Shown here: piece by piece, positions 13,402 through 36,249 of the stretch
Position numbering within the stretch: position 1 is the first letter of the stretch
How the letters are laid out: every line of letters starts with the position of its first letter
Assembly (NCBI GenBank): GCA_039621445.1
Contig: CP154954.1
Span: 26,672,954-26,736,953, forward strand
Source of the DNA: Euglena gracilis
Taxonomy: Eukaryota
Direction of reading: 5' to 3'
Length of the DNA: 64,000 nucleotides
The notes under the pieces: generated by a model
Databases searched by the model: none
What the model was told of the DNA's origin: nothing
Seen by the model: only the letters and a program-made list of their open reading frames with translations
Translations under genes and position numbers: made by a program

Positions 13402-15112
13402 AGGGGGGGGGGCCACTCTGGCCCCCACTTTGTCTTTGCCATTGGCAGATTTGACATTTACAGGTTCTTCTGTAGCAATTCTTGTACTCCCCTGCCAGCA
13501 TAAATCCTTCCCTTTCAGCAACCTTCAGCGCCCAGGGGCCACAGACATTTGTAGGATCTTTCCCCAGGTACTTAACACACTGCCTCAAATTTTCCTTTTC
13601 AATCTGCTCCTCCTTGCGCCTTGATTCCTCAATCAGCCAATTCATTGCACCTAAACTTCCCAAAACCACAGCAAGAAACAAACCAGAAGTCAAAGCCCCA
13701 AAGGGTTCATACTGCTTGCCACCTGCACAAAGTTACAGACGACAGATTGTGGAATGTACAAATTAGGAATCTCTGGCCTGGCTCTGCTTAATTCTGCTGC
13801 CATCTGGGAGCGAATCCCACACTCCCCTCCTCAAAAAGCTTCCCAAGCTATATCAGCCCTTGGCATCTGGGAGTCGCTCACAGATGGGTTTCACCTGTTC
13901 CACCTGACTTTTCACCGCCCTCGAGCCACACAAGTCTTTTTTCGAGCAATTTCCGACCCCACCATGCCACACCCGTGCATGCCGTGGCCAATTGCCTGCG
14001 GTTTGTGCACAGGGGGCAATTGGTTCCCTGGAGCAATGGCTACCTGAGCAATCGTCGAAGGCGTGCCACCAGGGCCTGCCACACAGGGGGGGGCTTTGAG
14101 GCAAAAGTTACCTGGGCAATCATCCCGGAAGATGTGCCACCAGGACTTGCCACACAAGCCGGCATGCCACTGAAAATTCGACCCGGAGCTTTCGACAGGG
14201 GGCGAAAAGAACAAGGCAATCAGGTTAACACCCGGTCCGCTCAGTCCTCGAGCCGCTTGGCAGACTTAAGCTTCAGCCTTCTCCTTCTCCGCTTCCAACT
14301 GGTCGTCTCATTCTCCACTCTCGCCTTGGATTCGTCTGCACTTGGCTCAGCCACACCCTTCTTCGGGACTTCCCAGCTGAACGGTTCTTCCTCGTCGGTG
14401 GACTCGCATGTGACCTTTGACAGCTCCTTCTGGCTTGCTTCTTGCACTGCATCACCAGCATGTACACCTGTGGTATGCACAGCCTCAGCATCTTCTTCAT
14501 CACCCCTTCTGGCATGCAATTGGTCCCCATGACACATCTGTACATCACCACATCCACCTTCATCAACTTCAATGTCACCATTTCAAGGGCTGTAATGCCC
14601 GATGCTGGCATCACACACCTCAGCATTCCTTGACTTGTCATCTTCAGCATGTAGCACTTGAACATCCTTGCAAGGCTCATGAACCCTTTGTGTAGGGGGG
14701 GCCCCACTCTGGCCCCCACTTTGTCTTTGCCATTGGCAGATTTGACATTTACAGGTTTTTCTGTAGCAGTTCTTGTACTCCCCTGCCAGCAAAAATCCTT
14801 CCCCTTCAGCAACCTTCAGCGCCCAGGGGCCACAGACATTTGTAGGATCTTTCCCCAGGTACTTAACACACTGCCTCAAATTTTCCTTTTCAATCTGCTC
14901 CTGCTTGCGCCTTGATTCCTCAATCAGCCAATTCATTGCACCAAACCTTCCCAAAACCACAGCAAGAAACAAACCAGAAGTCAAAGCCCCAAAGGGTTCA
15001 TACTGCTTGCCACCTGCACAAAGTTACAGATGACAGATTGTGGAATGTACAAATTAGGAATCTCTGGCCTGGCTCTGCTTAATTCTGCTGCCATCTGGGA
15101 GCGAATCCCACA
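13402..15112 (-). mobile_element. Non-autonomous LTR element A (~420-bp LTRs) nested in the Gypsy 5' LTR
   Basis: Direct repeats ~13402-13821 (outer end deleted into G-run) and 14691-15112 TG..CA; PPT GAGGAGGGGAG on minus; right TSD AGGG matches the empty site in the 3' LTR (~27651). Confidence 0.88.
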
Positions 15113-15372
15113 AGGGAGGGGTTGAAACCCCAAAGGCACCCCCCTTGGAAATCCCAGTGACACACCCCTCAGGGGTCGGGGAGGGTCCACTGGGAAGTTT
15201 CTCCTTGTAAATGATGGCCCAGTTTCGGCCACAGGGGGGTGCAGAATGGGAAAAAAAATCACAAGTCGGATCGAGGAGCCAAAAAAAGATCCTACGCCGG
15301 AAACTGGCCGGGGCCGGGGTTTCCGCTTCACCCCAGTGCTGCCGTGGGACATGGCAGCACGGGTGTGAATCA

Positions 15373-15382
15373 TGGTAAGCAG
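15373..15382 (+). promoter_or_regulatory. Primer binding site (tRNA-iMet-like TGGTAAGCAG)
   Basis: Immediately follows LTR CA end; same motif at 29804. Confidence 0.7.
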
Positions 15383-16299
15383 TGGTTTTTCTTTCAGCCT
15401 TCAGTTCCAAGTTTTGGGTTGGAAATCCCTGCTCAGAATGTTTTCTTTGATGATCAGCCATTGGCCCAATCTCAGATGGCAAATCTGACGATTGAAGTTT
15501 CGGGGCACAGGGAGTTTGGACCCGAAACCAGTTTGGCTGACCTCAGAACCCCCACAAATATGGGACAGATGTTGGAATTTCAGGGTGGGGATGGCCAGGT
15601 TGTCATTTCTAACCAACAGTGTTTTCCAGAGCCTTTTTCAGGATTTTTGCCTTTGTAAAATATGGGGTACGGTTTTTTGCTGCCTGAGTTGCACCCTCTC
15701 CCAGACTTTTCATTGGCGCAAAATTTGGGGAATCTGCCATCATTACCCGCTTTTGCAATGCCTTTGCCTCCAGCTCAACCAGTTTCTTCAACACCAGCCC
15801 AAGAGCCGGTGGCACTTTTGCAGTTTTCCCAACCATCCCAGGTAGATGGGCTGGCGAAGGAAACGGTAAGTGCCTCGACAGGGCAGGGGGGTGATAACCC
15901 CAGCCCAGTTTTCTTTGAAAAGCCGGCACAGGTCAGTGTGCTGGGCTTAAACAATAATAATAACTGGGACAGCAGCGAACGGGTCAGAGCGGAAGTGGAG
16001 GGGGGCAGAGAAAAACCCGAATGACCAGCCCAGTTCCACTTCTACTCGGCGACCCCGAACACCGGCTTCATCACCAGGCAGTGATGAAGTTCAGCAAAAA
16101 CGGCTGCACCGTGAGGTTGGTCACGGTCAGCCAGCAGCTGCTGCAGCCCCCCAGCCTCCTCATATTTTCATCGAGGGGGGTGAGGAGGAGGTCTAACCCC
16201 CAGCCTATGAAAGTTCTGAAGCCATCCCCAGGGTGGGTTCACAAAATCAGAGATTTGAAGACCCCTGGGGGGCAATTTTTACAAAGTAACAGAGACCTC

Positions 16300-19022
16300 C
16301 AGTGGACTGTGCAGCACCTGACTTTTCGGGTTTGGCTTTGGAAAAAGCTAACAAAGAGTGGGTTCTGCAGCAGCAGCAGCAGCAGCAACAACCCCCCGCA
16401 GTCGACATCCACCTGGTGGAGCACATGACTGCACGAATCGAAGAAACGGCCAGGGCTGACAGACTGCAGATTTTTGAACTTTTTGAAAAAAAATGTGAGG
16501 CCCAGGTGCAAATTTCTGTGAAAAAAATTGACGCACAGGCACTTGAACTTTTCTTCGGGCAGGAGAAATGTTTTGAGGAAAAACTGGTCCACCAGTTTTC
16601 TTCCAGCCGTGATCAGTTTTTGGCCCTGAGGCAGGAATTTTTACGAATTCTGGACAGCCTGCCACAGGAAAATTTGAAACAAGTGCAAAATCAGGTGGCC
16701 GCCTTACCGATTAAGGATCTCGTGCTTGAAAATTTTCAGCGGTTTGCTGAGAATTTTGGAGCCGCCCAGCCAGCTCAGGGGGGGGGGAGAGGCAGAAACT
16801 CTCCAAGAGCTGGCCGTTGTTGCTGCCAAAATCGTTGAAGTTCAGGCTGACCTGGTATCGCTGCGTAGTACGGTACAGGGCCAGGCTCAGCAGCTCCAGC
16901 AGTTCGCTGATTATGTTCGCCAGCTGGGTGAACAAAAATCAGCATGAATACAGCCCTCCATGGTTTTAGTGGGGGTATTCAAAAACTGCACCAGAATATT
17001 TCAGATGAAGTAGGGAAACGACCCTCAGAAATGCAGAAACTGTTGACGGATTGTCAGCAGAATTTTCAGAGTGTTTATCAACAGATTTTTTCCCAGGAGA
17101 AAAAATTTGGTGGGCTGGTGGAGGAATTAAGGCAGGGACTTGAAAAAGTTGGGGGGAACACTTTCGAGTTTGCAGAAAGTGTTGCAGGATTTACAAAAAA
17201 ATGGACCCGTACACCCAACTGCAGAACCGAGAGGGGTTTTGCAAAAAAAATTCTGACATGTGGTGGCTGCGGCAGCGCAGCCAGCAGCCCCTACACCCAG
17301 TGGGGCTGCCACAGCCTGGGCAGCAGCTGGCCCAGCAGCCCGTCGTCCAGCTAGTCCAGCAGCCTGGCCAGCCAGCAGGCCAGCCGCAGCCTGCTCACGG
17401 GCTGCCAATGGGGCTGGGCCAGCCGTCAGCTGGACAGCAGCAGCCCCAGCAGGTGCCCAGTGCTGACCCAGCTTTTTCAGATCAGATTATTTCTCATAAT
17501 AAATCTGCAGTTTCAAACATTTCCCCTCCCTTAGTGATTGAGGGGGGATTTGTTTTGGAGGACACGCAAGGCACGGCAGTGGTTTCTTCTGTGTGTCCCT
17601 CCACATATTTCTGCAGCCCCTGCTTTCTCGATTAGGCCTATCGGGACAGGGGGGGGGCTGCAGCCAACCCAGGTCACGGGTTGGGTTTTCCTTTTATCGG
17701 TGACCCAGTAGCTTTTGAAATTTTGCAGGGAGGTGCTAAGCCTATTTTGATAAATCGGGCAGCATTTCCTGGCAAGATTTTGAAGTAGATTGGAATCTTT
17801 ACTGGGATAGGTTGACATCAGGCAAACCGTACTCTAATTTGCAAAAGCTGCAGGTTTCTGAGGCATGTTTAGGACCCAGATTAGGGGAGGAAATCAGGCT
17901 CTATCGGTTGAATGGAACTAAATTAAGTTACCCAACCATATTGGCCCAGTTCCAGAACCGTTATGCCTCGAATAAGGGGCTTACGGCTCGGAAAATATGG
18001 CACGAGGTAACTATGGTAAACGAAGGCAAAATTACCCGGGCTGATCTGCAAGAATTTTGGATTAAATGTTGCAGTGCCTGGCACCATGTAAAGGTTGCCA
18101 CAGCCGGGGAGGCTCGTAGATTATTTTTGGAAAGAACTCATCCTTTTTTAAGCAAGTTTTGCATAGAAGAGGAGGATAACCGAGCCCGTAAACAACCCAT
18201 TGTCAGGCTCACAGGGATACCAAATCCCACGGTGGATGGGATTCAAAGGAGTGTGAGCCAGATCACTGGGGGGATTGATCCACGGAACGTGGTTATCAAA
18301 AACCCTGGTGCCATTTGCCTTATTTATATCAGTTCCCCGGAGGAGGCACTGAAATTAACAGCCGTAAATGGAAGGAAATTGCAGGGAATGGAAAATTTGC
18401 TCAACGCCGAATTGGTGGAACAACTAATGACCGTTGAGGAAATGTTTGCTTTTGCCGAGGGCAGGTTGGCTCTTCGGGAGAAGCAGGATTTGGCTTTGAA
18501 TCAGCACCATTTTCCCAGATTATTCAGCAAATCGACAACAAAAGGCTCAGGGTAAATACAGGTGTTGGAAAAAGGCCAGACCCCCCCCCCGGTGTCCCCA
18601 ACATCCATGCCAGCACCAGCAGCCGGGGGGCAGGTTCACACCTCAAAATCTGCCCACAGCCAGCTGCGAAGGGCGATAAGGGGCCAGCCCAGCCAGCCCC
18701 GCGTGGCAGGTCCCCTTCTTCGTCTTCGCGGCCAGCAGCAGTTTCATGGTCGTGAACCCAACGTCCAGCACCCCCAGCCCGGCAAGGCAAGGGGGGGCAG
18801 ACCTGGACCCCGCACGCATCAGGTAGGGGCATGTCTCCATATCCATGCTTCAACTGTGGGGAGGGCGGACATTATTTTTTTGAGTGTGACAAACCGCTGA
18901 GTGAGGCCCTTGCTAAATGTAATGATTTTTGGCGAACTAATGGAAAAGGCAAGGGGCAGCCCAACTGTAAAGGGCAGCAAGTCACTCAGCGAAATTGCTC
19001 GGGCAATGGGGGTGCATGGTAA
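16300..19022 (+). pseudogene. gag: Gypsy gag-like region (Q-rich/coiled N-terminus, capsid-like 17812-18555, zinc knuckle)
   Basis: CFNCGEGGHYFFEC (CX2CX4HX4C) at ~18846-18887; multiple frameshifts. Confidence 0.7.
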
Positions 19023-19329
19023 AAGGTGGGTGGGCATACCTCTTCTCCACCTGGGGCCCAATAGGGGGGCCAGGGGCAGTTTGAGAATGGGGGGGGCTGC
19101 CCATGGCCGTGTCTCTCCACCCTGTGAGGGAAACGGTGTAAATATTTCTGCTTCAAAGAAACTGGGGTGTACAGGATTTTATGGCTGATTCAGGGTGTGG
19201 CGAAAAACATTCTTTGGATCAGCCCCCCAGATATTTGAATCGGTCTCGTTACTCCTGGAGGGAAGTAAAATGTTCAAGGGTTCCTGTTTTGTATTCAAAT
19301 CTGCCACAGCCCAACCCCCTACCATCAGC

Positions 19330-19960
19330 TCAGCGACCTCAGGCATTAGATTTATTCGCTGGCACAGGTTCGGTGGTGAGGCGGTTGGCAGAACGGGGGT
19401 ATGAAGTTTTGTCAATCGAAAATGCTCCCTGGACGAACTTCCACCCCCACACAGACATTTTAACCTGGCACTACAGGCGATACCCGGTTGGATTTTTTGA
19501 GGTTATTGCCGCTAGACCCCCCTGTAATATTTATTCCACGGCTAATAACCCCAGACCAAGGGACTTCTCCCAGGCGGATGCCCTGGTGGAGAGAACCATG
19601 GAAAATATAGATTATTTTGAGCCCAAGTTGTGGTGGTTGGAGAACCCCCGCACTGGTCTTTTGCGAAATAGGGAGGTGGTGAAAAACCTGCCCTATATCG
19701 ACATTGATTATTGTCAGTTTTCAGATTTGGGTTATAAAAAGCCACACACGTTTCTGGTGCTGCCCTCCCATTTCACAACTACGGTCGGTGTCGTGTGATG
19801 GCGAATCGTGTCCTAACCTGGTGATGGGGGACAATGGGCAGTTCCGGCACCGTGAATTGTTGGGGGGCAGAAAAAATGAAGTTTTCCCTCCGACAAAAAG
19901 GAAGAATACCCCCCTGGTGATTGATTATCTCCTAAGTTCTGGGTATTTTCTGGGGGGCTA
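19330..19960 (+). pseudogene. C5-cytosine DNA methyltransferase domain inside the Gypsy polyprotein (frameshift ~19745)
   Basis: Motif I ALDLFAGTGS, II VLSIE, III TDIL, IV ARPPC, VI WWLENP, VIII-like DYCQF..GYKKP/TRFW. Confidence 0.9.
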
Positions 19961-20119
19961 GCCCAAAGAGATTTCCCAAAATTCCCAGGATTTTGAGGAA
20001 GGGGAAATTCCAGACCGTTGCTGTCATTTGGCCAACACCTTGAAGGTCAATCAGATGTGGCCCATTGAAAACGAGCTGCAACTTTTGATACTATCTCAAA
20101 CGTATCTCCCTAATTGAGA

Positions 20120-20480
20120 TACCAAGCAGCTCAAAGTTTTGGTGGACACGGGAGCCCAGGTGAACCTGGTCAAAAGGTTCATCGTTCCAAAACATCTGGC
20201 CAGGTCACCACGAATGCCGATTCGGCTGGTGGCTGCCAACGGCCAATGCGTTTTGGGGGACGACCAGTATATTAAATTGGAGTTGGGTTTTCAACGCAGG
20301 GGTACGGGGCAGGGGGGCACCCGGGCCTTGTACCTCGAAGGGGAAGTCTACCTCGCGAATATTGAGGTAGATGCTATACTATCATTTCCAAGGTTAGCCG
20401 AACATGGTTTGGGTGTGTTCCCACACCATAACGCTTTGGTTTATGACAATCCTGATCTGACTTTCTTGTACGGGTGGGAT
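20120..20480 (+). pseudogene. Retropepsin aspartic protease
   Basis: LVDTGAQVNLV catalytic motif, IRLVAANG, DAIL. Confidence 0.9.
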
Positions 20481-20879
20481 ACCAGAAATCAGAAAAGGAA
20501 ATCCCATAAGGGGAAGAAAAAACACAATTCGCAAAAAAGAGTTGGGTTGTGGTTTCTGACTTCGGAGAATCCCCTGAAAACGCACCAACCACGGAGTCCC
20601 TTGAAAATGAAAAGGTGTGGTTGCACCTGCAAAAAATGAATTTGCACCTACCCTTGCAAGGCTTTGATATGCAACCAAAATTTCCTGGCAAGAAGGAATT
20701 GCATACCATAGCCAAGCATCTCACCGAATCGCCAGCCGAGGACAAGGCAGTGAATGCCATAATCCAGGCTCGCGACTCGGATGAGAAGGAGGACCCCAGG
20801 GTGGTAGCATTTCGGAATAAAATTCTTCAGGATTTTGAAGGGGAGGTGTTGGGTATGGAGGTACCCCCTGACCCTCCTG

Positions 20880-22260
20880 TTCGGGGACCTTATGGTTACG
20901 CCCAGATTCCTCTGAAGGAGGGTGCTGTACCCACAACGCAAAAAACCTTTGTGTTACACGATGAAAGATTTGAAGCTCACAACAAGGTCACCCAGGAAAG
21001 GTGGCACCGGAAATTTGTTGAGCGATTGCCCAAGGGAACAAATTCGGAATGGCTGTCCGTAACATTTGTAGTTCCGAAAAAAGGAGGCGAATGGAGGGGA
21101 GTGGTAGACATGCGGGGGCCTAACAGTCAAACTAGGCATGTGTCCTACCCATTTCCCGTAATTGAAGACCTCCTGGTAAAACAAGGTGGAAACATGATGT
21201 TTTCCATCTTGGATTTACGGCAGGCTTTCCACCAACAGCCTTTGGACCCGGAAAGCCGGCCCATCACATGTTGTAGTACCCCCCTCGGTCTTTTTCAGTG
21301 GAGGGTTAATGTGATGGGTCTAACAAACGCAAGCCAGCAGTTTTAGCAAATGATGGAAGATCGCCTCTTCCCCGTGGGAGACGTGGCTGATCCTTACATC
21401 GACGACATTTTGACTGGAACCCGAGTGCGTCCTGGTGAGGATTTACTCGCAGCACATGACATGGATTTGCGAAGAGTCCTTGAAGTTTTACGAAAAGACA
21501 GATTTGTAGCCGACAAAAGAAAATGCCGCACGATCTGGGTGGGGGGGTGAGAAAACCATCCCCTGGAAAGCTTATGGCCATTGAAAAATGGGAGCCACCC
21601 CAAACAATCACGGGTTTACGTGCTTTTCTGGGGTTCACAAATTATTACAGCTCCTATGTGAAGGATTACGCCCACATTGTCGCTTGCCTTCAAGGTAAGC
21701 TCAACGTTTCACGAGTGGACGGCAAGAAGGGTTCCAAGAAAAGGATTTCTTGGGACCATCCGACATTGAGGCATTCCAAAAAATTAAATCACTGTTGTGC
21801 AGTGAATTAATTTTGCAACACGTTAAGCCAGACAAACCATTTGTTTTAAGAGTGGATGCCAGCCAGTATGCGGTTGGTGCCACCCTTGAACAATTAGTCG
21901 GGGAGGATAGGGCTCCTACTCCTGAAGACGCACGGGCCAAGCGTACTGTGCCTGTCGCCTTCATGAGTAGGAAGCTAACGGGCAGCCAAAGAAACTGGGT
22001 ACCTAGGAAACAGGAGACTTATGCCATAATCCTAGCCTTACAAAAGTGGGAATCATGGATTGGGCTGCAGCCCATCCTGGTTCTCACGGACCACAATTCT
22101 AGATGCACCAAGTGGTCCCATTGGGAGAAGGGCTAGGTGGCATCAAATATTATCAAATTTCGATTTGTCGGTTGGGTATATCCCGGGACGGGAAAATACC
22201 ATAGCCGATTTGTTGTCAAGGTGGGCTTACCTGGCCTCCCATGCCTTGAAGGACAATTTC
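20880..22260 (+). pseudogene. pol: Gypsy reverse transcriptase + RNase H (stop and frameshifts)
   Basis: WRGVVDMRGPNSQT, FSILDLRQAFHQ, YIDD, LRAFLGFTNYY, LRVDASQYAVGATL, ETYAI, N.IADLLSR. Confidence 0.95.
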
Positions 22261-22433
22261 AAGGCATGGGTTAGCCCTTGACACCAAGGAAATGAGGGAA
22301 ATCATTCAAACAGAAAAATTGGAAGAGGCAGAATCTATGTGGCTACGGTTAGTGGCCAACCAACCACAGCCAATACATACATTCGTGGAGTCACCACACG
22401 GGGAGGTGCTACCAGGGGGTCCGGGGACACGGG

Positions 22434-24116
22434 TGTTTTCTGAGTGTCTCCTTTTACCCACTGGGGGGTCAAACTTGAAAACGTTTCCTTTCCAGCAGCA
22501 CTCACTTTCCTTCAGCACAGCATAAACCAAGACTTGAAATCGTCATCTGGCGCTCAGGCCTTCCAGGAGTCAAAGAGTTCAGGACAGTTGCAGCTGCAAA
22601 AACAGAAATTTTGTAATTAGGATTCTCGCCTCCTAATTTAATTTTGGGTTTTGAAATTTTAAACCTGGCGCCGCCCACACACCCCTCTCTGGACACTTCG
22701 TGCCCACTGCCTTCGGCAATTTTTTTGCGGCGCCAAAATTGGCCTTTTTTCTTTTGGGGGGGAGGCGGCTGAAATTTGTTGTTTTTTTAATTTTTGAACG
22801 CTGAATCAGGGATATAATACATCCGTTGCAGGGATTTAGTCCAACAATGTCCAGCAGCAAAATAGGGGGGGCACAGGGCCACCAGCCAACCCCAGAGCCC
22901 TTGGGGCACCATGGGAAAGTTTGGTCCCCCTCCCAACCTTCCCCAGGACACTCCTGGGATGAGGGGGCCAGTGGGGGGTTTCCAGGGGGAGTCCCAGGGC
23001 CTGTGGGTAGGCCCCCTTGTGGCGGTCCTCCCACCTGGGCCCTGGGCCTGGGCCTGGCCAGCACAAACTCAAAGCCAATCTTGCAGGGAGGGGGCTCAAA
23101 TTGAACACACAATCATTGCAAAGAAGCTTCACCACTTGAATCACTGAAATTTGGGCTGTCCCCTGTGCCGACCTGGAGCCTAAGGTGCACTTGTTGGCAG
23201 GACCCTCCTTTCATCTTTTGCCTCCTCATTCTCCTTTTTGCTGAACTTGAAATTTGATTAGAAACTTTTGCCATTTTGAAACATTGCCTTATCCTTCTGC
23301 AGACAAATGCCACTTGTACTGGCCATTTTGTGGGGGGGACTGTGAACCCTGCCCCAACCAACTCAAACAACGGTGTGGCACAAGGATACTCCAGCATTCT
23401 GACAACAATGTCTGGAAGATCTTCCCACCAGGGGACAGTCACCCACCTTGGGACAACCAGCACCGCATGACCATGATCCTTCTTCAGCTTGTGGATGACA
23501 TTTGCAATGAGGTTGAAGGGGGGATTTGCCCACAACAATCCAACAATGGAATGTGTCCACTTCACTGTGAAGGAGTCTTCCACAAATTGTGACCCAGGTC
23601 CCCACCAGCATTTGAATCTCTTGCTGTCTTCCAAACTGAATGCATCAATGTTGGGGGTCTTCAAACCCAATCTCTCAAAGATTTCAACAACATACTGAAA
23701 TTTCACTGCATACAGCTCAGATTTCCAGCCAAGTTTTCTGCAGCATTTATCTTCCCAAATTTCTTCATCATTGACAATCCCTGACTTGACACTTTCTGAA
23801 ATGTCCATTTCTTCTGGCCAAACTGGCTGACTTTTGTCCTCCAAGACTTGCGCAACAAATGAACTCTTTGTGTTTTCTGAGTGTCTCCTTTTACCAACTG
23901 GGGGGTCAAACTTGAAACTTTTTCCTTTCCAGCAGCACTCACTTTCCTTCAGCACAGCATAAACCAAGACTTGAAATCGTCATCGTGCGCTCAGGCCTTA
24001 CAGCAGTCAAAGAGTTCTGAACAGTTGCAGCTGCAAAAACAGAAATTTTGTAATTAGGATAGGCGCATCCTAATTCAATTTTGGGTTTTGAAATTTTAAA
24101 CCTGGCACCGCCCACA
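22434..24116 (-). mobile_element. Non-autonomous LTR element B (246-bp LTRs) carrying an N6-adenine MTase
   Basis: LTRs 22434-22679 and 23871-24116, TG..CA, 4-bp TSD CGGG, PPT AGAGAGGGG on minus; sits between Gypsy RH and IN. Confidence 0.92.
23113..23808 (-). CDS. Dam-like N6-adenine DNA methyltransferase (DIRS-MT-like), open ORF
   Basis: PNIDAFS (motif I-like), LLWANPPF (motif IV), AVLVVPRW..PWW; no stops; first ATG ~23808. Confidence 0.8.
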   Translation of the reverse strand: MDISESVKSGIVNDEEIWEDKCCRKLGWKSELYAVKFQYVVEIFERLGLKTPNIDAFSLEDSKRFKCWWGPGSQFVEDSFTVKWTHSIVGLLWANPPFNLIANVIHKLKKDHGHAVLVVPRWVTVPWWEDLPDIVVRMLEYPCATPLFELVGAGFTVPPTKWPVQVAFVCRRIRQCFKMAKVSNQISSSAKRRMRRQKMKGGSCQQVHLRLQVGTGDSPNFSDSSGEASLQ

Positions 24117-24559
24117 CGGGTTGACGGTGCACACAACCGGGGGATAGGAATTCAGAACCACTTGGAGGAACAAAACCCCAGGTTGGGTTCAACCTCCACC
24201 CCCAAGGGAGAAAAATGAAAACATGTTTCATTCTCAACTCGGGTTGACGAGTTTGGGAATGAGACAAGTCTTGTGGACGAGGTCCAAGAGCCAAGGGGGG
24301 AGCATTTTCCATTGACACGCTTTTCTATACCAGCTTCGCCAACAATTCCAACCCCTGAACCTGCTGCCGCGGCTACCACTGAGGTACCTGGGGCAGACCG
24401 AGAATCACCTGTGTTGTCTTCAGGTGGTTTGAGTGGTGAGGGGGGGGGGAGCCACATCTACAGCCGATTCCTCACCCATCTCCCCCGGATCTGTGTGGGA
24501 TTTATCGTGGAAGGAGGAATATTTAAAAAGTTCCCTCCTTGGTCACCAATTTTTCAGGT

Positions 24560-25976
24560 TACCCAGGATTCAAAGGTGCCGTGGCCTGAAAATGTAAAGG
24601 TTTTTGGGGACAAAAGGTTTTTCGAGGAGAGGCTTTGTGTGCCCAAATCTCTCCAAGAAAACCTCATTCGGGATCACCACTCATACCAAGGGCATGTGGG
24701 ATTCCCAAGGTTATGGGAATGCATGTCCCTTAGGTATGATTAGGCTGATCACTCACTCGCTCGAGAATTTGCTAAAGGAGTCATGGGCCTTTCTGGGACT
24801 TGCCAAGCGTGCCGACGGCCGGAGAGTCTTAAGGGTATAGTGGAATCTACACCCATACCCCCAGCCGTAATGTATTCGGTGGCCCTGACATGTTTAGCAT
24901 GCCTCTCGTGGAGTGGGAAGGAAATTCTTACGACTCCAGGCTTGGGTGTGTGGATCGTCTCTCCGGTTGGATAGTGGCGATCCCCCACCTAGCAATAGGA
25001 TTTACCCAAGCCAAGGCAGCCAACCAAATGCTGTTGCATGCTTGGAGACCCTTTGGCGTCCCTTCCATTATTACTTCCGATCTGGGCCCACATTTTGTCG
25101 CCGGTTGGTGGCAGTGTGTGGCAGTTGGTGGCAATGTGTGCCTTGATGGGAATTAGGAAAGCCTACTCCCAGGCCTACGATCACCAGGCGAATGGAAGGG
25201 CGGAGAGGGCTGGCCAACAAATAATGGAACGGCTTGAGAAAATTCAGGTTGAGGACAAGTTGAATTGGGTTGAAGCCCTCCCCCAAGCACTAGACCGTAT
25301 CCAGGATACGCCGGGGGGGAGAGGCCTAAGCCCATTTCAAATCTTGTTCGGTCGACACCGTTCATTGTGTGGTTTACCTTATGAACCGTTAAGGGATTGT
25401 GAAGATGCCTGATCATTTTTTTCTCGGCAAAGATAAATTGATTTGGTAGTGGCTGGCAAAATGAATAATTTGCATGCCAAGCAATGTGCTCGGGCCAACT
25501 GTGGGAGTTGGGAGCCATTGGAGGTGGGGAATCTGGTGTTGTACCTCAGACCCCCCGATGGTGGCACAAAACTGGATTCCCGTTGGTTGGGCCCTTGCAA
25601 GGTTACCGCAAGGGAGGGAATTCATTCCTACCTAATTGAGGTCAAACCGGGCCATATTATGAAGGCCCATCGGAAGGCTTTGAAGGTATATGTGGAGGAC
25701 CCCACATCCGATAAGCCTATCCCCCTATTTTTCCATCGGCGGACGGTACCTGAGGCGGAAGGTGCCCCAGATACCTGGTTAGTGGATAAAATCCTAAACC
25801 ACAAGTTCGTTAATGGAAAAATGTTTTTCTTAACGAAGTGGCAAGGTCTTGAGGAGGCGAATTGGGAACCGGTGGAACATTTTTCCCAGGAGTATTATAG
25901 TGATGTAATAGATTATTGTCTGGCAAAAGGGTTGCCGTTGGATGTCTCTAAGGATTTAACGGCAACGGCAACCTGA
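24560..25976 (+). pseudogene. pol: Gypsy integrase with C-terminal chromodomain
   Basis: HH..GH/CQAC zinc motif, VDRLSG, IITSDLGPHF, QANGRAER, SPFQILFG, WLGP, chromodomain VDKILNHK..FFLTKWQG..NWEP. Confidence 0.92.
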
Positions 25977-27916
25977 AAAAAGGGGGAAAGGAGAGGTGAA
26001 AAAGAGCCTGGAGTGGTTGCCTGGGGAGAGGGAGGTTCCATTCTATGCCCCTTCACAGATGCAGGTGGACCCCATCACAGGGCTGAGGCATTGTGAAAAA
26101 TGACGGGAGTTTCCTCGTCATTGGTTTCATTTTTTTATTTCTCCCCTGAAGTTTTCATTCGCCACCACACCCTGGTTTGGGTGAGGCTGGTGTCGGCAAT
26201 CGAGGACATTTCATTGCCCCTGTTGATTTGTTGCCATTTTTCATTGAACTCCCGTGAAATGATTTCAAAAGAGAATGAAGGATTCTCGTGGCTGGGGGGA
26301 AACCAGCCGAGAATATTATTTTTTATACGGGTGGGTGTTTTCCAATCGAGGGATCCCACCCCGGAACGGGAAGGGATGTTGCTAACAACATCAAAAGCAA
26401 AACGTTGAATGAGTGCATGATTGCCACCCGTTTTGTTTACGTTGTTGTGGGTGGATTCCGGTTTGGAAGTTTCACCAAAAATTCTTAACGAGGACAAACC
26501 AACGGAAGCACAACCGAGGGTTTGTTCTTTTGACAGCCTCCTCCAAGTATGGCTTTGAGATTGCCCTGTCGGTTTGGCTGGGCAAAGCCACATTGCTAAA
26601 TTTCCAAATGGGGGAAGGAACCACCCCCCACAACGGTGTGCATGGTTTGCCACCACACTAAGGGGAGGCAAACCGGCACCCAAGGAAGACGCCGAAGCCC
26701 AACACCCCGAACTTCGACGAGGCGTTTGGCTCTGGCAACCATCACTATCCGTTTCATCCACCTACGCAGGTCGGATTGTCAATTCGAAGTCTGGGACTCT
26801 GAGTTGGTCGAGTTGGAGGTTGATGCAAGATATTTGAAACGGTTGTTTTCTGGTATTGGCGTACGAGGAGCATGTGGAGAGAACGACTGGAGATGGTAAT
26901 TTCATCGGCCTACCCATGCGACTCGCTATCCTGACTGATTCAAAAGGTCGTGACTCCTCCCCTTGCGACGACAGTCGGGGGTTTCACCCCCCCCCCTCCT
27001 TTTCGCTTTCCTTGGGATGGGAATGAAAAAAATATTGAAATAGTGCGTGTTAAGAGAAAAAAATGGATTGGGTGAGAGCGCTTGCAAGCGCTTGGAACAG
27101 ATTTTCCTGAGATTGGCGCCTGAGTTCCTGGAGTTTTTGCAAGGGTTTGCAAGACTCAAAAATGATGGAATTCAGCATAATTTATCAAAATCAAGGGGGG
27201 AAAACTTGATTTTGACCTGGGTTGGTTCATTTTGATGCAATGGGCAAGAATTTGGGGTTTCAGAGCGCTTAGGAATCAGCGCACTCAATCTTAAATTTAA
27301 CTGCCCATCAAGGGCATCAAAATCATATTTTCTCTCACAGGATTTACCTTTATTTTCCTTTTGGCCATTGTCAATTGTTGCAATTACAAACAATTATTAT
27401 TGTGAATTCAAGCTTTGAAATTGCAATTGCAAATGGAAAGTCCAATTGAGAACAATCAATCAAGTCAACAAGAGGGTGAGGTTTGTTCCCCCAATCCCCC
27501 TCCATCTGTGGAAAACGGGGCAGGGGGGTGGGGCTCCCAAACTCAGGCAACCACAGACCAAATTTCACCCCAAAACCCCCTTTTTGGCCTAGAAACGGTG
27601 AGAAATGACACCCAGGGGGGGGGGGGTTGCTCTAACTGGTTCAACTGAGCAGGGAGGGGTTGCAACCCCAAAGGCACCCCCCTTGGAAATACCAGTGACA
27701 CCCCACTCAGGGGTCGGGGAGGGTCCACTGGGAAGTTTATCCTTGGAAATGATGGCCCAGTTTCGGCCACGGGGCGATGCAGAATGGGAATAAAAATTCC
27801 GACACAAGTCGGCTCGAGGAGCCAAAAAACGATCCTACGCCGGAAACTGGCCCGGGGCCGGGGTTTCCGCTTCACTCCAGTGCTGCCGTGGAACATGGCA
27901 GCACGGGTGTGAAACA

Positions 27917-28989: not shown

Positions 28990-31900
28990 TGTATTGAGAC
29001 CATTGGGTCTCAATGAGTGGAAACTTCAAAATCCCTGTGACTGAAACTTTTCACTGAAATCCTTGGATTACCCTGTCGGGAAACCACTGCCAGTGTGAGC
29101 CAAGGGGGTCCCAATGCCCAATCCCCCTCTTCTGCTCATCTGCCCCAGCAGCTGTAGAAGAGCTGTCCCCTGAGCCCTGTTGGACACACAGCCCCCCCCC
29201 CACTAAATGCAAAGACAAGTGTCGGCTGTCGGCCCGTCGACAGCCGGTTTCTCAACATTCCCCCCGCGATAGGACTCACCCAGTGGGTAGGAAGCTCCAG
29301 AAGTCAATTGGAAGGTGAGCAAAATGTTGCAAGTCTGGAAATACAAAAGAAAAGAATGAAGGAGCAAGGCATTCCATTCCAAAATCATTGTTTGTATGTT
29401 CCTCTCACCCACTGCAAGCACAGGTGTGTCTGACCAAGGTGTGCAGGTTGCCTTGTGTGTGCTTTGCCTTCTGAATCAAGTCCATGCTTCAAAAGGGTCT
29501 TATTTGTGGTTTTCTTTGAATTCAAGGGCAGAAAAAGCCATTTTCAGTTACAAAGTTTTGGATTCTATGCCGGTATGCCAACCCAGCCACTGGCAGGGGG
29601 CGAAAAGCCGGGCCTCCGGCCCTGAGCCCTCCGGAGGCTCTTTTTATTGAAAAACCCTGGGGCTGGGTGGTGACCGTAGGTGGGGGAAAAGGAAGAAGGA
29701 GGCCCAGTCAGTCGGGCACTCCATTACCCAGGCATTTCAATTCATTCCGGTACACCTTTACACTTTCGTCGTCCTTCTTTTTTCTTAAAACCCCCCACCG
29801 ACATGGTAAGCAGAGGTTTGCTGCTGGGCTGTGCCCAGCAGAATCTTTTTGAAATCTGTGGTTTTTTTGGAATCTGTGCACCATAAATCTGCTGGAATCT
29901 GTGAACCAACCAGTTTGTGCTGTAAATCGTAGTGGGTGAATCATCTCGCGTTGGCAAATGGAATGGAATCAAACTGTGAGCAAGGCTCTGGGGGGAAGGG
30001 ACACTGAAAACGGCCCAGATTTTTGCAATTCGCAGTAATAGGAGAATGGGCCAGTGTGAGTGTCAGCTGTGAGCCAAGCTCTAGCTCCAGGTTGTCGGGT
30101 GTGATTTTTTTCTGTGGCTTGTGGTTTTGTCAGTGTTATTTTCAGCAGTTTTTTCCCAATCAGGCTGTGCTTTTTGAACGAACTGTCGAGTCCAATCTGG
30201 AAGATATTTTTTCTGGCAGAAGTTTTCATTTTCAGGTGTTCAGCCCATTTTCATTGGTCGTTTTACAGTTTTGGCTGTGGGAAGTCAAGTTTACGTTTTC
30301 TTCAGCAGTGATTCAAGTTTTTCATCGTTGTCTGGTTGTGGATTTTTTGGATAAACCTCAGAATGCTTGAAGCATGTCATTTTTGAGAAACACCGTTTTC
30401 TCTGGGGTGCACAGTACCCTTTTACTTGTGCTCAAGCAGCCAGACAAACATTTCCAAAAGTTTTTTGTTTTGTGAGTCCCAGTTTGGCTTTGATCGGGGT
30501 GAGTTCACTGCAGAATTGGCAGGTGCTCAATCCACAGACTAGGACATCATTTCAGTGGGTTTGTATGCTGGTCCCATGCATTTGTGGGCTCCGAGTCCAT
30601 CTTTTGGGAGAGGTTTACGGTTTACGGGTTTGTTCAGTGACTTTTTTCCTGTCTGGGACATGCATCGACCTGTTCCATTTTCACAGTTTTGTTGTTCCAC
30701 AGTTTCGGTGTGCTTCCAGTGAGGCAGCCCAGTTCGGTTTTGGGTTATGCCGTTTCGAGGGGAAAAACACCTCTATCGAACACTGGCAGGCAGAGTAATT
30801 TTCATTCATTTTTGGGATTGACTGGTCAAAGAGGGGAACCGGGTGTGTAAATCCGGGAGGAACAGACACCCCCGTCGACACACACTTAAGGGCCCAGGGA
30901 TCCTGAGTTCAGTGGTGTTCAGTTTTCAGTTCAGTGTTCAGTGGTTCAGTTTCAGTTCAGTGGTTTTGTTTTTGGTTGCAACCTGGGGAATTTTTAGTGA
31001 CCAATCCAAGTTTTCAGTTGATGAGTGACGAGGGGGGGAACATACACAAGGGGTGCTGCGGCCGCACCATCTCTTGTATAAACCCCCAAGAAACGAAATC
31101 AGCTGGGACATATGGGTGGTTGCATTTTCTGAGAGCCCCATTCCGGAAAATCTCAGAGTCATCATTGGGCAGCTGAGGGTGTTGTTCAGCTGCATAATCG
31201 CCAGAATTTTGTTTCATGAAATTTGGTTGTATTGTCAAGCCTGTTGGGAAACAAAGTCCACCAGAATATTTCTGGAAAAAATCCCAAAGTGGTGGCAAAG
31301 CTCATTTTTTCCTTGTCCTGTGTGATCTGTTGGCCAATTGGTGAGCCATAATCTCAATCTCATCTGGGTTGGTTTGCTTGGTTGTGGTCGGCTGCACATT
31401 TTTCCAACAGCAGCACTGTTTTTTTGATTTTTCCAACAGCTGCGTTTTGTGTTGCAGCCTGCTGCTGGGGATGCAAATTTTGTCGTAATGGGGTTCCTCC
31501 CTTCCCCAATTGCCATGAGTTGTTCGGCAATATGATAGACAATGATGCATCCTGGTTTTTTTGTTGTGGTTTGGCCACACCGACAAATCAATCTGTGTGG
31601 GTGTTGTGAGAAGGCAGCCATAGGGTCCAGCTTCAGTGGATGTTTGTTGCTGTGTTTGGTTTTTTTGTTTCTTTTTTCCCCTCGTGCAGGTTTTCAACTC
31701 AACAACGCAAGGAGCAAGAATTGAGAGAATTTCGAGGATTTCACCGTGGAGAATTTATCAAGAATTTTGCAATTTGGACTACCACAAGCAGAATTTCGGC
31801 GCCACGGTGGGGTACTTGGAAGTGGTATGGTTAACCAGCTGGGAAGCTAATGCTGAGCCTTGGTGTGTTGGAGCCTGGCTGATAATTGGTTGTGATGCAG

Positions 31901-34900: not shown

Positions 34901-35779
34901 CTGCAGGGATATAAACTCGGAACTTAGGGCTCACAATCTTGTTAAATGTCTTCTCTTTTTTTTCTTGGACAAGACGGCTCACCAATGCAGCAAACACAGA
35001 ATTCTCCAAGAGGAAAACTTCAACAGCTATGTGAAAATTTCACCTTGAGCTGCACCAAATTCCTGTCTTGGAAAGTCGGCTTGCCAAAAGTAACACAAGC
35101 ACAGAATGTTCAAGAACAAGAACCACAGCACAGCGTACATGACCAGTAACTTCACATCTTGTGGTGAATTGGGGTGGCTGGCAGCCAGGTGGACCTCGAC
35201 CTGGCGCAAAGGTAGGCCTCTTGTTAGGCTGCTGCAGCCACTGCAAACAAAATTCTGAACCACAATTCAAACCAGATTGATGATGACAGCAGTAAATCCT
35301 CCTTCATATCCTCAACACTTGAGCATGGGCAACACACATTCTTCCCACAGATTGTCTCCAGATTGAAACTTTTTCACAGATCTAATCCCAGAATGTCCAC
35401 TTGAAGTTCAATGCTTCAAATCCCATCTGCCATATCACCTTCCAAGTGTCTTTCTTCACAGCCAACCATCTGACAAATGGCCTCCAAGCCACAACAGCAA
35501 ATGAACACAATGTGTATTGAGACCATTGGGTCTAAATGAGTGGAAACTTCAAAATCCCTGTGACGGAAACTTTTCACTGAAATCCTTGAAATTTTCACAG
35601 TATTTGATACACAGCATCAATCCAAATGCTTGTGGATTTCTGAGTCATTGTGTTCAGGCTGGTTGCGGCCTGTGTGAAATTGTGTGGTTTCCCCCTTGAA
35701 TATGGAGGCTCCACTCCTAATTTCAGCTCTGATATTGTAATTTGGATTTGCTTGTCTGCAGGGCACCGGGCCGCCCACA
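28990..35779 (-). mobile_element. LTR element C (267-bp LTR), internally inverted and interrupted by element D
   Basis: Complete LTR 35513-35779; other LTR split into 28990-29067 and inverted 34648-34832; TSD CGGG both sides; removal restores the DIRS RH-MT junction. Confidence 0.85.
29220..34573 (+). mobile_element. Young non-autonomous LTR element D (LARD-like, 584-bp LTRs)
   Basis: LTRs 29220-29803 and 33990-34573, nearly identical, TGTCGG..CCGACA, TSD CAAG, PBS TGGTAAGCAGAGG, PPT AAGGGAGGGGG; no RT/IN motifs seen inside. Confidence 0.92.
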
Positions 35780-35783
35780 CGGG

Positions 35784-36210
35784 AAATAGACAACGGGGAT
35801 TACTCCTTAGACCCCCAACTTTGTCAATGGTTAAGACTGCAATTCCAAAGGTTCATAAATTTGGAAACAGATTTACTTGCCTCCCCAGGCAACAAAAAAA
35901 TACCCAATTTCGTGGCCAGATGGCCCCACTGCGATGCCACAGCCGTACATGCATTACAATGTCCGGCATCTTTATGCAACCTCCCCCCCTGGTCAAAAAT
36001 TCAAAATTTTCTCCCGAGGTTGAGAATGTTTCCCCAGACCAAAGTTTTGATGGTCACCACCTACTGGGATTCAGCCACATGTTGGCCCCAATTAAAAAAA
36101 ATGAAAGTTCCAGGGACCGCCAGCCTGAAAATCACCCCCCTAAGAGGGTATGTTCACCAATTGCAGGGGGGAACAAATGCCACCCCTAGGTGGCCCCTTC
36201 TTTGCATGAT
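35784..36210 (+). pseudogene. DIRS-A N6-adenine methyltransferase (Dam-like) domain, frameshifted
   Basis: DLLASPGNKK, degenerate YANPPW, positioned between RH and YR as in DIRS. Confidence 0.7.
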
Positions 36211-36249
36211 TTGCTCAGGAAAATATTGGAGGGGAAACAAATTCAGGTT

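Follow-up and report, generated by a model that had tools for sequence, protein, structure and literature searches.

A 1.7-kb LTR element with a Dam-like methyltransferase as its only credible open reading frame, nested in a DNMT-bearing Ty3/gypsy retroelement

The window, a 64-kb stretch of Euglena gracilis DNA (64,000 nt), contains a 1,683-bp LTR element at positions 22434-24116 on the minus strand (Table 1). The element is bounded by direct repeats of 248 nt with 94% identity (22433-22680 and 23870-24117), which the TG..CA termini delimit to LTRs of 246 bp each. Both the element and its open reading frame (ORF) lie on the minus strand, which makes the LTR at the right the 5′ LTR and places the start of the open frame within that repeat. 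The DAM ORF stands alone in the 1,191-bp interior, and gag, protease, reverse transcriptase (RT) and integrase are all absent by ORF map and Pfam. An earlier sequence-only reading of this DNA had noted the 246-bp LTRs, the CGGG target-site duplication (TSD) on both flanks, a purine tract (read here as AGAGAGGGG) and broken ORFs in the neighbouring transposable elements, all of which were confirmed, the host retroelement ORFs being fragmented. Its estimate of roughly 15-20 differences between the LTRs agrees with the 16 mismatches counted by blastn (93.5% identity over 247 nt, 0 gaps). The remaining interior frames are compositional Pro/Gly-rich runs. A read-through of 159 further open codons past the DAM TGA was also rejected as compositional and non-coding, because three minus-strand and two plus-strand frames are open there and copies vary by indels of 1, 2, 9 and 12 nt. 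The indel-prone stretch at 22720-23090 extends from the 3′ untranslated region into the region of the purine tract. An Rfam scan of the window returned zero families.

Table 1. Features of the LTR element and of the retroelement that surrounds it, in window positions.
Feature	Position	Strand	Evidence or remark
Host Ty3/gypsy DNMT-like domain (LDLFAGTGS, PPCNIYS, WWLENP)	19265..19756	+	tblastn and translation
Host RT (RVT_1) and RNase H (RT_RNaseH_2), upstream of the insertion	20510..22136	+	Pfam
Target-site duplication CGGG, left copy	22430..22433	.	Sequence identical to 24117-24120
3′ LTR (element sense), 246 bp, TG..CA on both strands	22434..22679	-	Repeat search and blastn
Polypurine tract AGAGAGGGG	22682..22690	-	2 nt upstream of 3′ LTR; element positions 1427-1435
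3′ untranslated region, GC-rich, indel-prone	22691..23112	-	8 of 12 listed contig indels at 22720-23090
DAM CDS, Met58 to TGA, 231 aa: acidic N-terminus, DAM core, basic tail SAKRRMRRQKMK	23113..23808	-	
DAM (PF05869-superfamily) methyltransferase core, residues 82-257	23209..23736	-	Family profile 2.6e-68, pLDDT, fold matches
Catalytic-type motif NPPF, residues 152-155	23515..23526	-	Translation and conservation in relatives
PBS-like decamer CAAAGAGTTC, directly after 5′ LTR	23861..23870	-	Exact reverse complement of LTR positions 100-109
5′ LTR (element sense); stop-to-stop frame starts within, at 23979	23871..24116	-	Repeats and ORF map
LTR-internal GAACTCTTTG, putative transcript 5′ end, would pair with PBS (Tf1-like self-priming)	24008..24017	-	
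Target-site duplication CGGG, right copy	24117..24120	.	Sequence
Host integrase zinc-binding region, integrase and chromodomain, downstream of the insertion	24219..25976	+	Pfam

Elements of the Tf1/sushi group are self-priming, with a primer site complementary to a site in their own LTR transcript. The primer site directly after the 5′ LTR is likewise a 10-nt self-complement and not tRNA-like (no TGG). Its complement is found, without mismatch, at LTR positions 100-109, and a match of at least 10 nt was reached in only 4 of 5000 LTR shuffles. The LTR-internal decamer GAACTCTTTG occurs in the second LTR too. The decamer at the primer site closes the minimum-free-energy stem of the leader, the fold energy of which is no better than that of shuffles (z = +1.0). 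Self-priming as in Tf1 is suggested by the 10-nt complement only. The proposal of an integrase-type LTR unit with TSD, polypurine tract (PPT) and self-complementary primer site is thus supported.

The cassette is nested, in antisense orientation, inside a DNMT-bearing Ty3/gypsy chromovirus. The DNMT-like domain of this host element bears motifs I, IV and VI, and was matched at 43% identity in tblastn searches with the polyproteins P0028 and P0067 (E 8e-33 and 1e-35), while a Pfam search of the region gave nothing at E ≤ 0.01. The nesting in a DNMT-type element described earlier therefore stands. In-silico excision of the cassette together with one TSD copy yields a host frame that runs from 22250 into the integrase ORF with one stop, and reconnects the host RNase H linker with that ORF.

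In principle, two solo LTRs could happen to flank a gene of cellular or captured origin, or the locus could be an error of assembly, and the 64-kb window has just one copy of the element. This explanation is highly improbable, given the identical 4-bp flanks at exact TG..CA ends, the PPT and primer site that abut the LTR edges correct for one orientation, and the host reading frame restored by excision. Contigs of other sequencing runs also cover every part of the element (all 30 bins) and bridge both LTR-internal junctions (X15 records 9, 15 and 16, and X17 record 17). Runs X15 and X17 are RNA only by guess, and their contigs were not counted as evidence of expression.

DAM domains in Ty3/gypsy elements have already been reported, as DAM-LTRs and as “EpiLTRs” with both DAM and DNMT, some with a chromodomain (10.64898/2026.05.21.726589). 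That report overtakes the statement of the sequence-only reading that such domains are typical of DIRS elements and not of integrase-type LTR elements. DNMT and chromodomain elements co-occur with DAM both in EpiLTRs and at the present locus. However, DAM, DNMT and chromodomain do not form one unit here, as the DAM lies on the opposite strand within its own LTRs and TSD. It is separate from the host, since its removal restores the host DNMT-PR-RT-RH-IN-chromo frame. A fused arrangement is found in P0155, a Ty3/gypsy polyprotein of the order PR-DNMT-DAM-RT-RH, the RT/RH of which is 41-61% identical to that of the host element and the DAM 37% identical to the cargo DAM. Other autonomous polyproteins with a related DAM are P0028 and P0067. 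No autonomous parent with the same LTRs, PBS or PPT was found in the 64-kb window or in the sequence collections scanned. The primer site of the host element begins with TGG, and its longest self-complement is 7 nt, with none of 10 nt, so the immediate neighbour is not obviously a helper. Two further repeat-bounded units in the window have no credible ORF: a non-coding LTR element at 29219-34573 with 585-bp LTRs (99.8% alike), and a repeat unit at 13404-15112 with 418-bp repeats (97.6% alike). The ORFs P0152 and P0153 inside the latter were dropped as low-complexity.

The stop-free frame of the cassette (23113-23979, minus strand) comprises 288 codons from stop to stop, and a reading of 231 aa begins at its first ATG, at 23808. 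As the sequence-only reading had stated for a stop-free ORF of about 230 aa, the motifs IDAF (residues 111-114), NPPF (152-155) and VPRWVTVPWW (176-185) are present in its product, P0001. The open frame alone is unremarkable, since the probability of no stop is 0.31-0.22 after 22-28 random substitutions. A Pfam scan of P0001 itself gave 0 matches even at E ≤ 10, and its membership of the Dam family thus rests on transitive and structural evidence. P0001 matched 1085 cluster representatives at E ≤ 1e-3. A family alignment was built from 141 of 151 listed sequences, ten of the shortest matches being omitted, and 123 of the 141 aligned homologues matched PF05869 Dam in Pfam (best 2.6e-12). By BLASTP, P0001 matched a phage ORF (E 1e-11, 42% over 53 residues spanning the catalytic core) that is itself PF05869 (E 8e-15), and hhalign to the phage Dam gave 97.3% probability. 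The two share a common core of D-x-F/A, GPGS, D/E-S-F and W, followed by LLW-x-NPP-F/Y; the cassette DAM differs in its eukaryotic retroelement setting and in an extra basic C-terminal tail. PF05869 enzymes methylate GATC-type DNA sites.

Among 140 relatives the NPPF motif is nearly invariant (N in 136, P in 135, P in 137, F or Y in 139), and in the P0001 model it directly follows the strand at residues 148-151. The window copy retains all strongly conserved core residues of the family alignment. Two of its substitutions, S156N and G228R, are private to this copy and fall in fairly conserved columns. Searches of PDB sequences gave only a chance match with P0001 (E 1.5) and none with the family profile. 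In a protein atlas, the nearest clusters were short eukaryotic hypothetical proteins (score 0.92) from sparse taxa, which serves only as a lead.

In the AlphaFold prediction, mean confidence by 10-residue block (pLDDT) is 79-98 over residues 81-260 and 96-98 over residues 91-200. This confidently predicted core is a Rossmann-type class I SAM methyltransferase fold resembling N6-adenine methyltransferases. A search of BFVD returned 30 matches at E ≤ 1e-3, with phage DNA N6-adenine methyltransferases on top. The best match among solved structures is PCIF1/CAPAM (PDB 6irx, 6irw), ranked first by Foldseek against the PDB (E 8.8e-5) and given Z 11.6 by VIA-align over 145 residues at rmsd 3.1, about 3 Z above rRNA adenine methyltransferases; T4 Dam and E. 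coli Dam follow at Z 7.9 and 7.6. PCIF1 is nevertheless only 10-13% identical, and the cassette DAM is without its WW or helical domains (~180 residues vs ~480 in PCIF1). PCIF1 carries the same NPPF-type motif. Its substrate is capped RNA, on which it acts as a cap-specific adenosine N6-methyltransferase. The earlier assignment as a Dam-like adenine methyltransferase is upheld by the 123 PF05869-matching homologues, the phage BLASTP match and the fold comparisons, which together supply the N6-methyltransferase profile and structure matches that had been called for. Sequence comparison and structure prediction thus support a PF05869-superfamily N6-adenine methyltransferase domain as the sole credible ORF of the element.

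The chemistry of this domain is less certain than its fold. In the same element, the DAM might methylate RNA or a cap-adjacent adenosine as PCIF1 does, or might lack catalysis and bind nucleic acid or SAM in the service of the element RNA, e.g., by aiding its packaging or stability or by mimicking host PCIF1. The rank of PCIF1 among solved structures favours such a function, as do the giant-virus PCIF1-WW proteins among the BFVD matches and the weak match of 4 of the 141 relatives to Pfam PCIF1_WW. For DIRS1-type domains, Iyer et al. (2016) placed the family in the PCIF1 clade, judged the domains inactive and PCIF1-derived, and suggested that they are RNA binders or PCIF1 mimics. No 6mA resulted when eukaryotic DAM relatives were expressed in dam- E. 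coli, and an RNA-DNA hybrid substrate was raised by the preprint authors (10.64898/2026.05.21.726589). On the other side, the sequence links favour phage PF05869 (123 of 141, vs 4 of 141 for PCIF1, with the BLASTP E of 1e-11), and the leading BFVD fold matches are DNA methyltransferases. The near-invariance of NPPF and other core residues argues against a dead domain, and copies of DAM-LTRs are richer in 6mA than other LTR elements in three species (10.64898/2026.05.21.726589). An RNA-directed or silent role is accordingly the less likely course, while carrying real weight. That the DAM writes 6mA on DNA is itself a tentative proposal, only slightly better placed, and the label “6mA writer” given by the sequence-only reading stays conjectural in view of the dam- E. 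coli results with relatives.

The methyltransferase domain of DIRS1-type elements (Goodwin and Poulter) belongs to a homologous family, and capture of the cassette DAM from a DIRS-like or viral source had been proposed. The window contains DIRS-like RT-RNase H-DAM frames at 58052-55230 (minus), 35741-36286 and 52930-53145. Their DAM domains are only remotely similar, with family-profile E-values of 7e-5 to 6e-3 vs 2.6e-68 for the cargo DAM, and such a capture was not borne out. The cassette also differs from the DIRS order in having no tyrosine recombinase and no RT/RNase H, and in its canonical LTRs and 4-bp TSD in place of DIRS repeats. A tree was computed from one window DIRS-like ORF and the 120 family proteins, of 151, that span profile positions 80-200; P0155 and a frameshifted DIRS-like copy (55230-57319) were left out. 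The DIRS-like ORF (35741-36286) formed a long outgroup branch, and the nearest relatives of the cargo DAM were short stand-alone DAMs, contrary to the suggested DIRS affinity. The cargo DAM and four short proteins form a group within a supported 51-row clade, in which 48 rows are short, two are DNMT-fused and one is of another kind. By sequence comparison, the DAM inside the polyprotein P0155 also counts among the nearest relatives.

The short form prevails in the family, with 106 of the 151 listed proteins at or below 300 aa. The nearest listed relatives (48%, 48% and 40-43% identity) are also short, with a DAM core, a basic tail and a stop, and 68 of the 69 profile-spanning family proteins end no more than 42 residues after the basic tail. 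At the other end, 137 of the 151 start with M, but N-termini are uncertain because gene callers write M for alternative starts.

The element is present in many copies and, to judge by contigs of two public DNA-type runs, of which 711 and 909 align to it, with flanks that diverge at the LTR ends, at different genomic sites. Loose contig ends at the LTR termini show low consensus agreement (0.47-0.64), as expected with many insertion sites. In run X1, 170 contigs have at least 99% identity, 268 have 95-99%, 226 have 90-95% and 47 have less than 90%. A set of 20 runs from 15 studies, all under one organism label and with no RNA run listed, contains 13-30% of the sampled words of the element. The search for further copies that had been suggested earlier therefore shows a multi-copy family represented over its whole length, and not a single-copy sequence. 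No close DNA copy of the element was found in scans of genome contigs or, with P0001, of viral contigs. A metagenome scan for close DNA copies gave only six distant loci (26-44% identity), none with direct repeats of at least 60 nt.

The window copy looks old and to be evolving approximately neutrally. When it was compared with the majority letters of the aligned contigs, the sole basis of the selection comparison, 8 synonymous and 14 non-synonymous differences were counted (p = 0.086), and purifying selection was not significant. This is compatible with a passive LARD- or TRIM-like deletion remnant of an autonomous DAM-bearing Ty3/gypsy element, in which the DAM was kept by accident, has no role and spread solely through the surviving cis signals. 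Such an origin would also fit the existence of autonomous polyproteins with a related DAM (P0155, P0028 and P0067), the non-coding LTR-bounded elements common in the window (29219-34573 and 13404-15112), and the similar substitution density in the 40 rows shown, with 80 more omitted (18 in the 696-nt CDS, 11 in the 433-nt 3′ UTR). However, the DAM within P0155 has no basic tail and continues into RT. Independent accidental deletions are an unlikely source of the shared DAM core-basic tail-stop ending of the nearest relatives and of the profile-spanning proteins. The 12 contig indels listed, with five further rows omitted, also all lie in the flanking untranslated parts: the 3′ UTR has eight of them, the leader four and the CDS none. 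A passive remnant is thus an improbable explanation, and maintenance of the DAM ORF by selection in an active lineage is somewhat favoured.

LARDs and TRIMs are non-autonomous LTR elements that need helper proteins in trans, and are usually described as non-coding. The cassette has the same LTR-PBS-internal-PPT-LTR layout without gag-pol, but keeps a conserved enzyme ORF. With DAM-LTRs and EpiLTRs it shares a eukaryotic retroelement DAM with Asn-Pro-Pro plus an aromatic residue, in an integrase-type LTR context. In those autonomous elements the DAM forms part of the pol polyprotein, whereas the 1.7-kb cassette, a separate, nested antisense insertion, lacks gag-pol and has the DAM as its single ORF, which terminates with a basic tail followed by a stop. 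In the text of the preprint, DAM-only sequences are treated as degenerate remnants, and the term “non-autonomous” does not occur there, supplements aside (10.64898/2026.05.21.726589). The DAM in Ty3/gypsy elements is thus already known, and the new part is the non-autonomous DAM-only LTR cassette.

The element is best explained as one old copy of a many-copy, non-autonomous, DAM-only LTR family, a reading to which a probability of about 0.68 is given; that a DAM-only LTR family of this kind is mobilised in trans is very probable. Transcription would begin in the 5′ LTR, near element position 100, and the element's own reverse transcription may be primed in the manner of Tf1. Autonomous Ty3/gypsy elements would supply RT and integrase in trans for its copying and insertion; the DNMT(+DAM)-bearing chromovirus lineage to which the host element and P0155 belong is a candidate source of such helpers. 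The basic tail may take the DAM protein to the nucleus or to the particle. There the DAM could methylate adenine N6 on element cDNA, on an RNA:DNA intermediate or on integrated copies, and new copies would thereby gain a 6mA mark of permissive chromatin, as in the model proposed for DAM-LTRs (10.64898/2026.05.21.726589).

Adenine methyltransferases of retroelements have recently been proposed as a means by which transposons exploit 6mA-marked permissive chromatin, and earlier descriptions have the DAM only as a domain of autonomous DIRS or Ty3/gypsy polyproteins. A high-copy DAM-only cassette would show that the DAM module can travel, and be kept, alone. It would also offer a natural minimal construct for testing the methylation target, 231 aa in length and equipped with a promoter-bearing LTR of its own. 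Pipelines based on domain proximity may mistake a nested insertion, such as a DAM cassette in a DNMT-chromovirus, for a single “dual-methylation” element. If the ORF is dispensable, this is an ordinary non-autonomous LTR family. A bolder and rather unlikely extension is that DAM-only mini-LTRs are selected, widespread satellite retroelements that rely on DNMT/chromodomain Ty3/gypsy helpers for Gag, RT and integrase. If so, many “orphan” DAMs, and some calls of DAM, DNMT and chromodomain in proximity, would be cassettes or nested insertions, the DAM would be a separate trans-acting gene, and the “epigenetic toolkit” would be split between helper and satellite.

The DAM cassette is a 1,683-bp unit on the minus strand with integrase-type LTR cis anatomy and no replication proteins of its own. 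Its order is LTR, self-complementary primer site, single ORF, untranslated region, PPT and LTR, and gag, protease, RT and integrase genes are all absent from within it. Direct repeats are found at 22433–22680 and 23870–24117 (248 nt, 94% alike). A blastn search of the element against the 64-kb window aligned the LTRs at 93.5% identity over 247 nt, with 16 mismatches and no gaps, and returned no second copy elsewhere in the window. The cargo ORF contains the motifs IDAF, NPPF and VPRWVTVPWW. Repeats, blastn and translation thus bear out the LTR element, flanks, ORF and motifs described in the sequence-only reading, with the correction that the element is minus-oriented.

Features of the DAM cassette, its host element and the DIRS-like elements in the window
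Feature	Position	Strand	Basis or remark
Cassette 3′ LTR (element sense)	22434–22679	minus	TG..CA ends
Cassette 5′ LTR (element sense)	24116–23871	minus	TG..CA ends
CGGG flank	both ends of cassette		read directly
Open frame	23979 to 23113	minus	288 codons stop to stop; first ATG 23808, giving 231 aa
Primer site CAAAGAGTTC	23870–23861	minus	directly past terminal CA of 5′ LTR
LTR decamer GAACTCTTTG	24017–24008 (LTR positions 100–109)	minus	exact reverse complement of CAAAGAGTTC
PPT, purine run AGAGAGGGG	2 nt upstream of 3′ LTR	minus	
Host LTRs	about 12838–15372 and 27050–27916	plus	about 93% alike
Host DNMT-like domain	19265–19756	plus	tblastn with database polyproteins, 43% identity, E 8e-33 and 1e-35
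Host protease	20124–20441	plus	tblastn with database polyproteins
Host RVT_1	20510–21346	plus	Pfam
Host RT_RNaseH	21699–22136	plus	Pfam
Host integrase zinc-binding domain	in 24219–24743	plus	Pfam
Host chromodomain	in 25437–25976	plus	Pfam
DIRS-like DAM	35741–36286	plus	family profile
DIRS-like DAM	52930–53145	plus	family profile
RT-RNase H-DAM, frameshifted	58052–55230	minus	family profile

A TGG-type tRNA primer site is absent from the cassette. The LTR decamer complementary to the primer site also occurs in the 3′ LTR, and a complement of at least 10 nt at the primer site arose in 4 of 5000 shuffled LTRs. This complement suggests a possible Tf1-like self-priming of the cassette. The minimum-energy leader fold is closed by the two decamers, while its overall energy is no better than that of shuffles (z = +1.0). 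The presumed U3 of both LTRs (22615–22638 and 24052–24075) contains a palindrome, AATTAGGAT-N6-ATCCTAATT, a possible factor-binding site. The right LTR and most aligned contigs have it in perfect form, and it is degraded in the left LTR. A GC-rich stretch of ~420 nt separates the stop codon from the purine run. Past its TGA, the DAM frame remains open over 159 further codons, through the PPT into the 3′ LTR (22633–23112, minus). Read-through was rejected as an explanation: the extension is probably compositional, because further frames, some on either strand, are also open there and copies differ by indels.

The cargo protein (P0001, numbered stop to stop with its first Met at residue 58) has no Pfam match even at E ≤ 10, and neither it nor its family profile has a real match among PDB sequences. 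HMMER against 1.84 billion cluster representatives returned 1085 relatives at E ≤ 1e-3, of which 201 reach E ≤ 1e-10; they align to residues about 82–257. In the family alignment (141 rows: the query and 140 matches), 123 of the 141 members match PF05869 Dam, the best at 2.6e-12. Scanning viral contigs with a family alignment led to 10 phage loci, two ORFs of which encode PF05869 proteins (E 8e-15 and 2e-15). P0001 matches one phage PF05869 protein directly (BLASTP E 1e-11, 42% over 53 residues, D112 to K164), and the family profile aligns with a second at an hhalign probability of 97.3%. The DAM ORF is conserved and its catalytic-type motif is intact, all strongly conserved core residues being retained (P109, D112, F114, W126, G127, D135, W141, W150, N152, P153, P154, F155, K164, P177, W179 and W219).

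An AlphaFold model built from the 141-row alignment is of high confidence in the core, with block means of 79–98 over residues 81–260 and 96–98 over residues 91–200; the whole-chain average is 75. The model has 30 matches at E ≤ 1e-3 among predicted viral structures, phage DNA N6-adenine methyltransferases first and giant-virus PCIF1-WW proteins next. PCIF1 ranks first among solved structures (Z 11.6, 145 residues, rmsd 3.1), followed by rRNA adenine methyltransferases (Z about 8–9), T4 Dam (7.9) and E. coli Dam (7.6). The top match to a solved structure recalls the placement of the DAM family in the PCIF1 clade, thought inactive, in the available text of Iyer et al. (2016). The main rival explanation takes up this likeness: the element would be the same, with an RNA methyltransferase or a silent binder as its cargo. 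E. coli assays on cargo relatives, negative in the available text of the 2026 preprint on DAM-LTRs (10.64898/2026.05.21.726589), also speak for it. The same text derives the DAM family from prokaryotic Dam, and the sequence links favour this derivation over the PCIF1-clade placement. A lack of any N6-adenine methyltransferase profile or structure match had been named in advance as refuting; since both kinds of match were found, the Dam-like identity proposed earlier was not refuted, and the indirect evidence argues strongly that the cargo ORF encodes a Dam-like methyltransferase.

Many diverged copies of the cassette exist. Between 13 and 30% of the element's sampled words are present in each of 20 runs from 15 studies, which share a single organism label, and contigs at least 85% alike were placed on the element from four runs (711, 909, 23 and 1), their depths not being converted into copy numbers. 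All 30 element bins, CDS included, are covered in two DNA-type runs. The contigs of sequencing run X1 comprise 170 at ≥99% identity, 268 at 95–99%, 226 at 90–95% and 47 below 90%. LTR-interior junctions are bridged by records 9, 15 and 16 of run X15 and by a 1,279-nt record of run X17 over 22775–24031. Consensus agreement is low (0.47–0.64) at the loose ends of the outer LTR termini, as expected with many different flanks, and a number of contig joints that leap over about 1,440 nt look like solo LTRs. The database relative P0002 is 92% identical to P0001 over 284 residues and stops at the same place. Its source contig measures 1,460 bp, about 23 nt more than the cassette's LTR start-to-start distance of 1,437 nt. 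Assembler collapse of an LTR-interior-LTR unit with the same period would yield such a length, but for now the agreement is only an arithmetic coincidence.

Single-copy occurrence with neutral decay had been named in advance as the pattern that would count against a mobile cassette. The first part does not apply, as 711 and 909 contigs from two DNA-type runs together cover the element; the second fits the window copy, whose substitutions do not depart significantly from neutral expectation (p = 0.086). Against the contig majority letters, 22 differences are listed in the CDS frame, 8 synonymous and 14 non-synonymous, and at 14 of the 22 the majority letters yield the P0002 residue. Two fairly conserved columns carry private changes: S156N, where 97 of 139 have S, and G228R, where 88 of 120 have G. 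This copy looks like an old insertion under neutral drift. A frame would stay open after 22–28 random substitutions with a chance of 0.31–0.22, and the intact frame of this copy alone is no evidence of selection. It is the family that provides evidence for selection on the DAM ORF. The contigs show at least 12 indels; the 12 listed comprise eight in the 3′ untranslated part, four in the leader and none within the CDS of 696 nt. Family proteins of at most 300 aa make up 106 of 151 relatives, and 68 of 69 profile-spanning relatives end no more than 42 residues past a shared basic motif of the SAKRRxRRxK type. The short DAM and basic-tail architecture is conserved far beyond the cassette family.

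The cargo is joined with P0002 (support 99) in an unrooted tree of 121 rows, with P0004 and P0005, two short proteins (48% identity), as sister. The surrounding clade (support 98) holds 51 rows, of which 48 are short, two are DNMT-fused and one is other. When longer proteins were searched, P0155 (1,538 aa) emerged, a single frame with PR, DNMT-like, DAM, RVT_1 and RNase H domains; its DAM shares 37% identity with the cargo and its RT/RNase H 41–61% with the host element. DNMT and DAM are also joined in P0028 and P0067. Given the tree clade and these fusions, the cargo is placed by its sequence in a DAM radiation living among DNMT-bearing Ty3/gypsy elements. DNMT-like (C5) and DAM domains occur in single frames in three orders among P0028, P0067 and P0155 (PR-DNMT-DAM, DAM-DNMT-PR and PR-DNMT-DAM-RT-RH). 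These three orders suggest that both methyltransferase modules have been reshuffled repeatedly in this Ty3/gypsy lineage. The host has its DNMT-like domain first and then the protease, whereas P0155 has protease, DNMT, DAM and RT. A DIRS-like or viral source had also been proposed for the cargo. With the family profile, the window's DIRS-like DAM domains reach only E 7e-5 to 6e-3 (cargo 2.6e-68), and the domain included in the tree (35741–36286) forms a very long outgroup branch. Recent capture from these elements is therefore unsupported. The DIRS-like frames encode RT, RNase H and a remote DAM-like domain, with the motifs DMFCTPRNKKIP, ANPPWS and VPHWASTSWW, and the copy at 55–58 kb contains 334-nt direct repeats 96% alike (55407–55740 and 56096–56429).

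The host is a large Ty3/gypsy chromovirus (about 12838–27916, plus) with the order DNMT-like, protease, RT, RNase H, integrase and chromodomain. Its DNMT region has no Pfam match at E ≤ 0.01; the frame contains the motifs LDLFAGTGS, PPCNIYS and WWLENP. Insertion into a 5mC-writer element, as first suggested, is supported at this level, because the flanks show both DNMT-like homology and motifs. In-silico excision of the cassette with one CGGG puts the integrase ORF in phase with the frame that precedes the insertion (from 22250), and only one stop separates them. A single composite element was rejected, the cassette being a nested, antisense insertion. LTR divergence is similar in the two elements (host about 93% alike, cassette 93.5%). 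The host primer site starts TGGTAAGCAGTGG, of which no 10-nt self-complement was found. The host's 5′ LTR is interrupted by a 1.7-kb unit (13404–15112) with 418-bp direct repeats 97.6% alike; its longest frames (P0152 and P0153) are low-complexity, and its repeat ends in CCCACA, as does the cassette LTR. A further LTR element of 5.36 kb (29219–34573) has TG..CA ends and 585-bp LTRs that are 99.8% identical; its primer site TGGTAAGCAGAGG is of the tRNA type, and it has a PPT AAGGGAGGGG and a CAAG-type duplication. It contains no ORF above 229 codons and none that is gene-like, and is young and apparently non-coding (LARD-like).

A cassette transcript would start in the 5′ LTR near position 100, about 30 nt downstream of an AT-rich box, and its RNA would prime its own reverse transcription. 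A Ty3/gypsy helper could provide reverse transcription and integration in trans. The DAM protein, imported or packaged via its basic tail, might then methylate adenine on the cDNA, the hybrid or the integrated copy, by analogy with the model of adenine methylation of element copies proposed for DAM-LTRs in the preprint (10.64898/2026.05.21.726589).

DAM in DIRS elements has long been known. DAM in Ty3/gypsy elements and “EpiLTRs” combining DAM, DNMT and chromodomain are described in the available preprint text, in which the term “non-autonomous” is absent and the DAM sequences that lack TE features, 46% of the total, are read as degenerate remnants (10.64898/2026.05.21.726589). Full-text searches of a limited literature collection yielded no account of an LTR cassette with DAM alone, which would be a new variant beside the known DIRS and Ty3/gypsy DAM elements. 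Classification based on proximity could take such a nested DAM cassette for a dual-methylation element.
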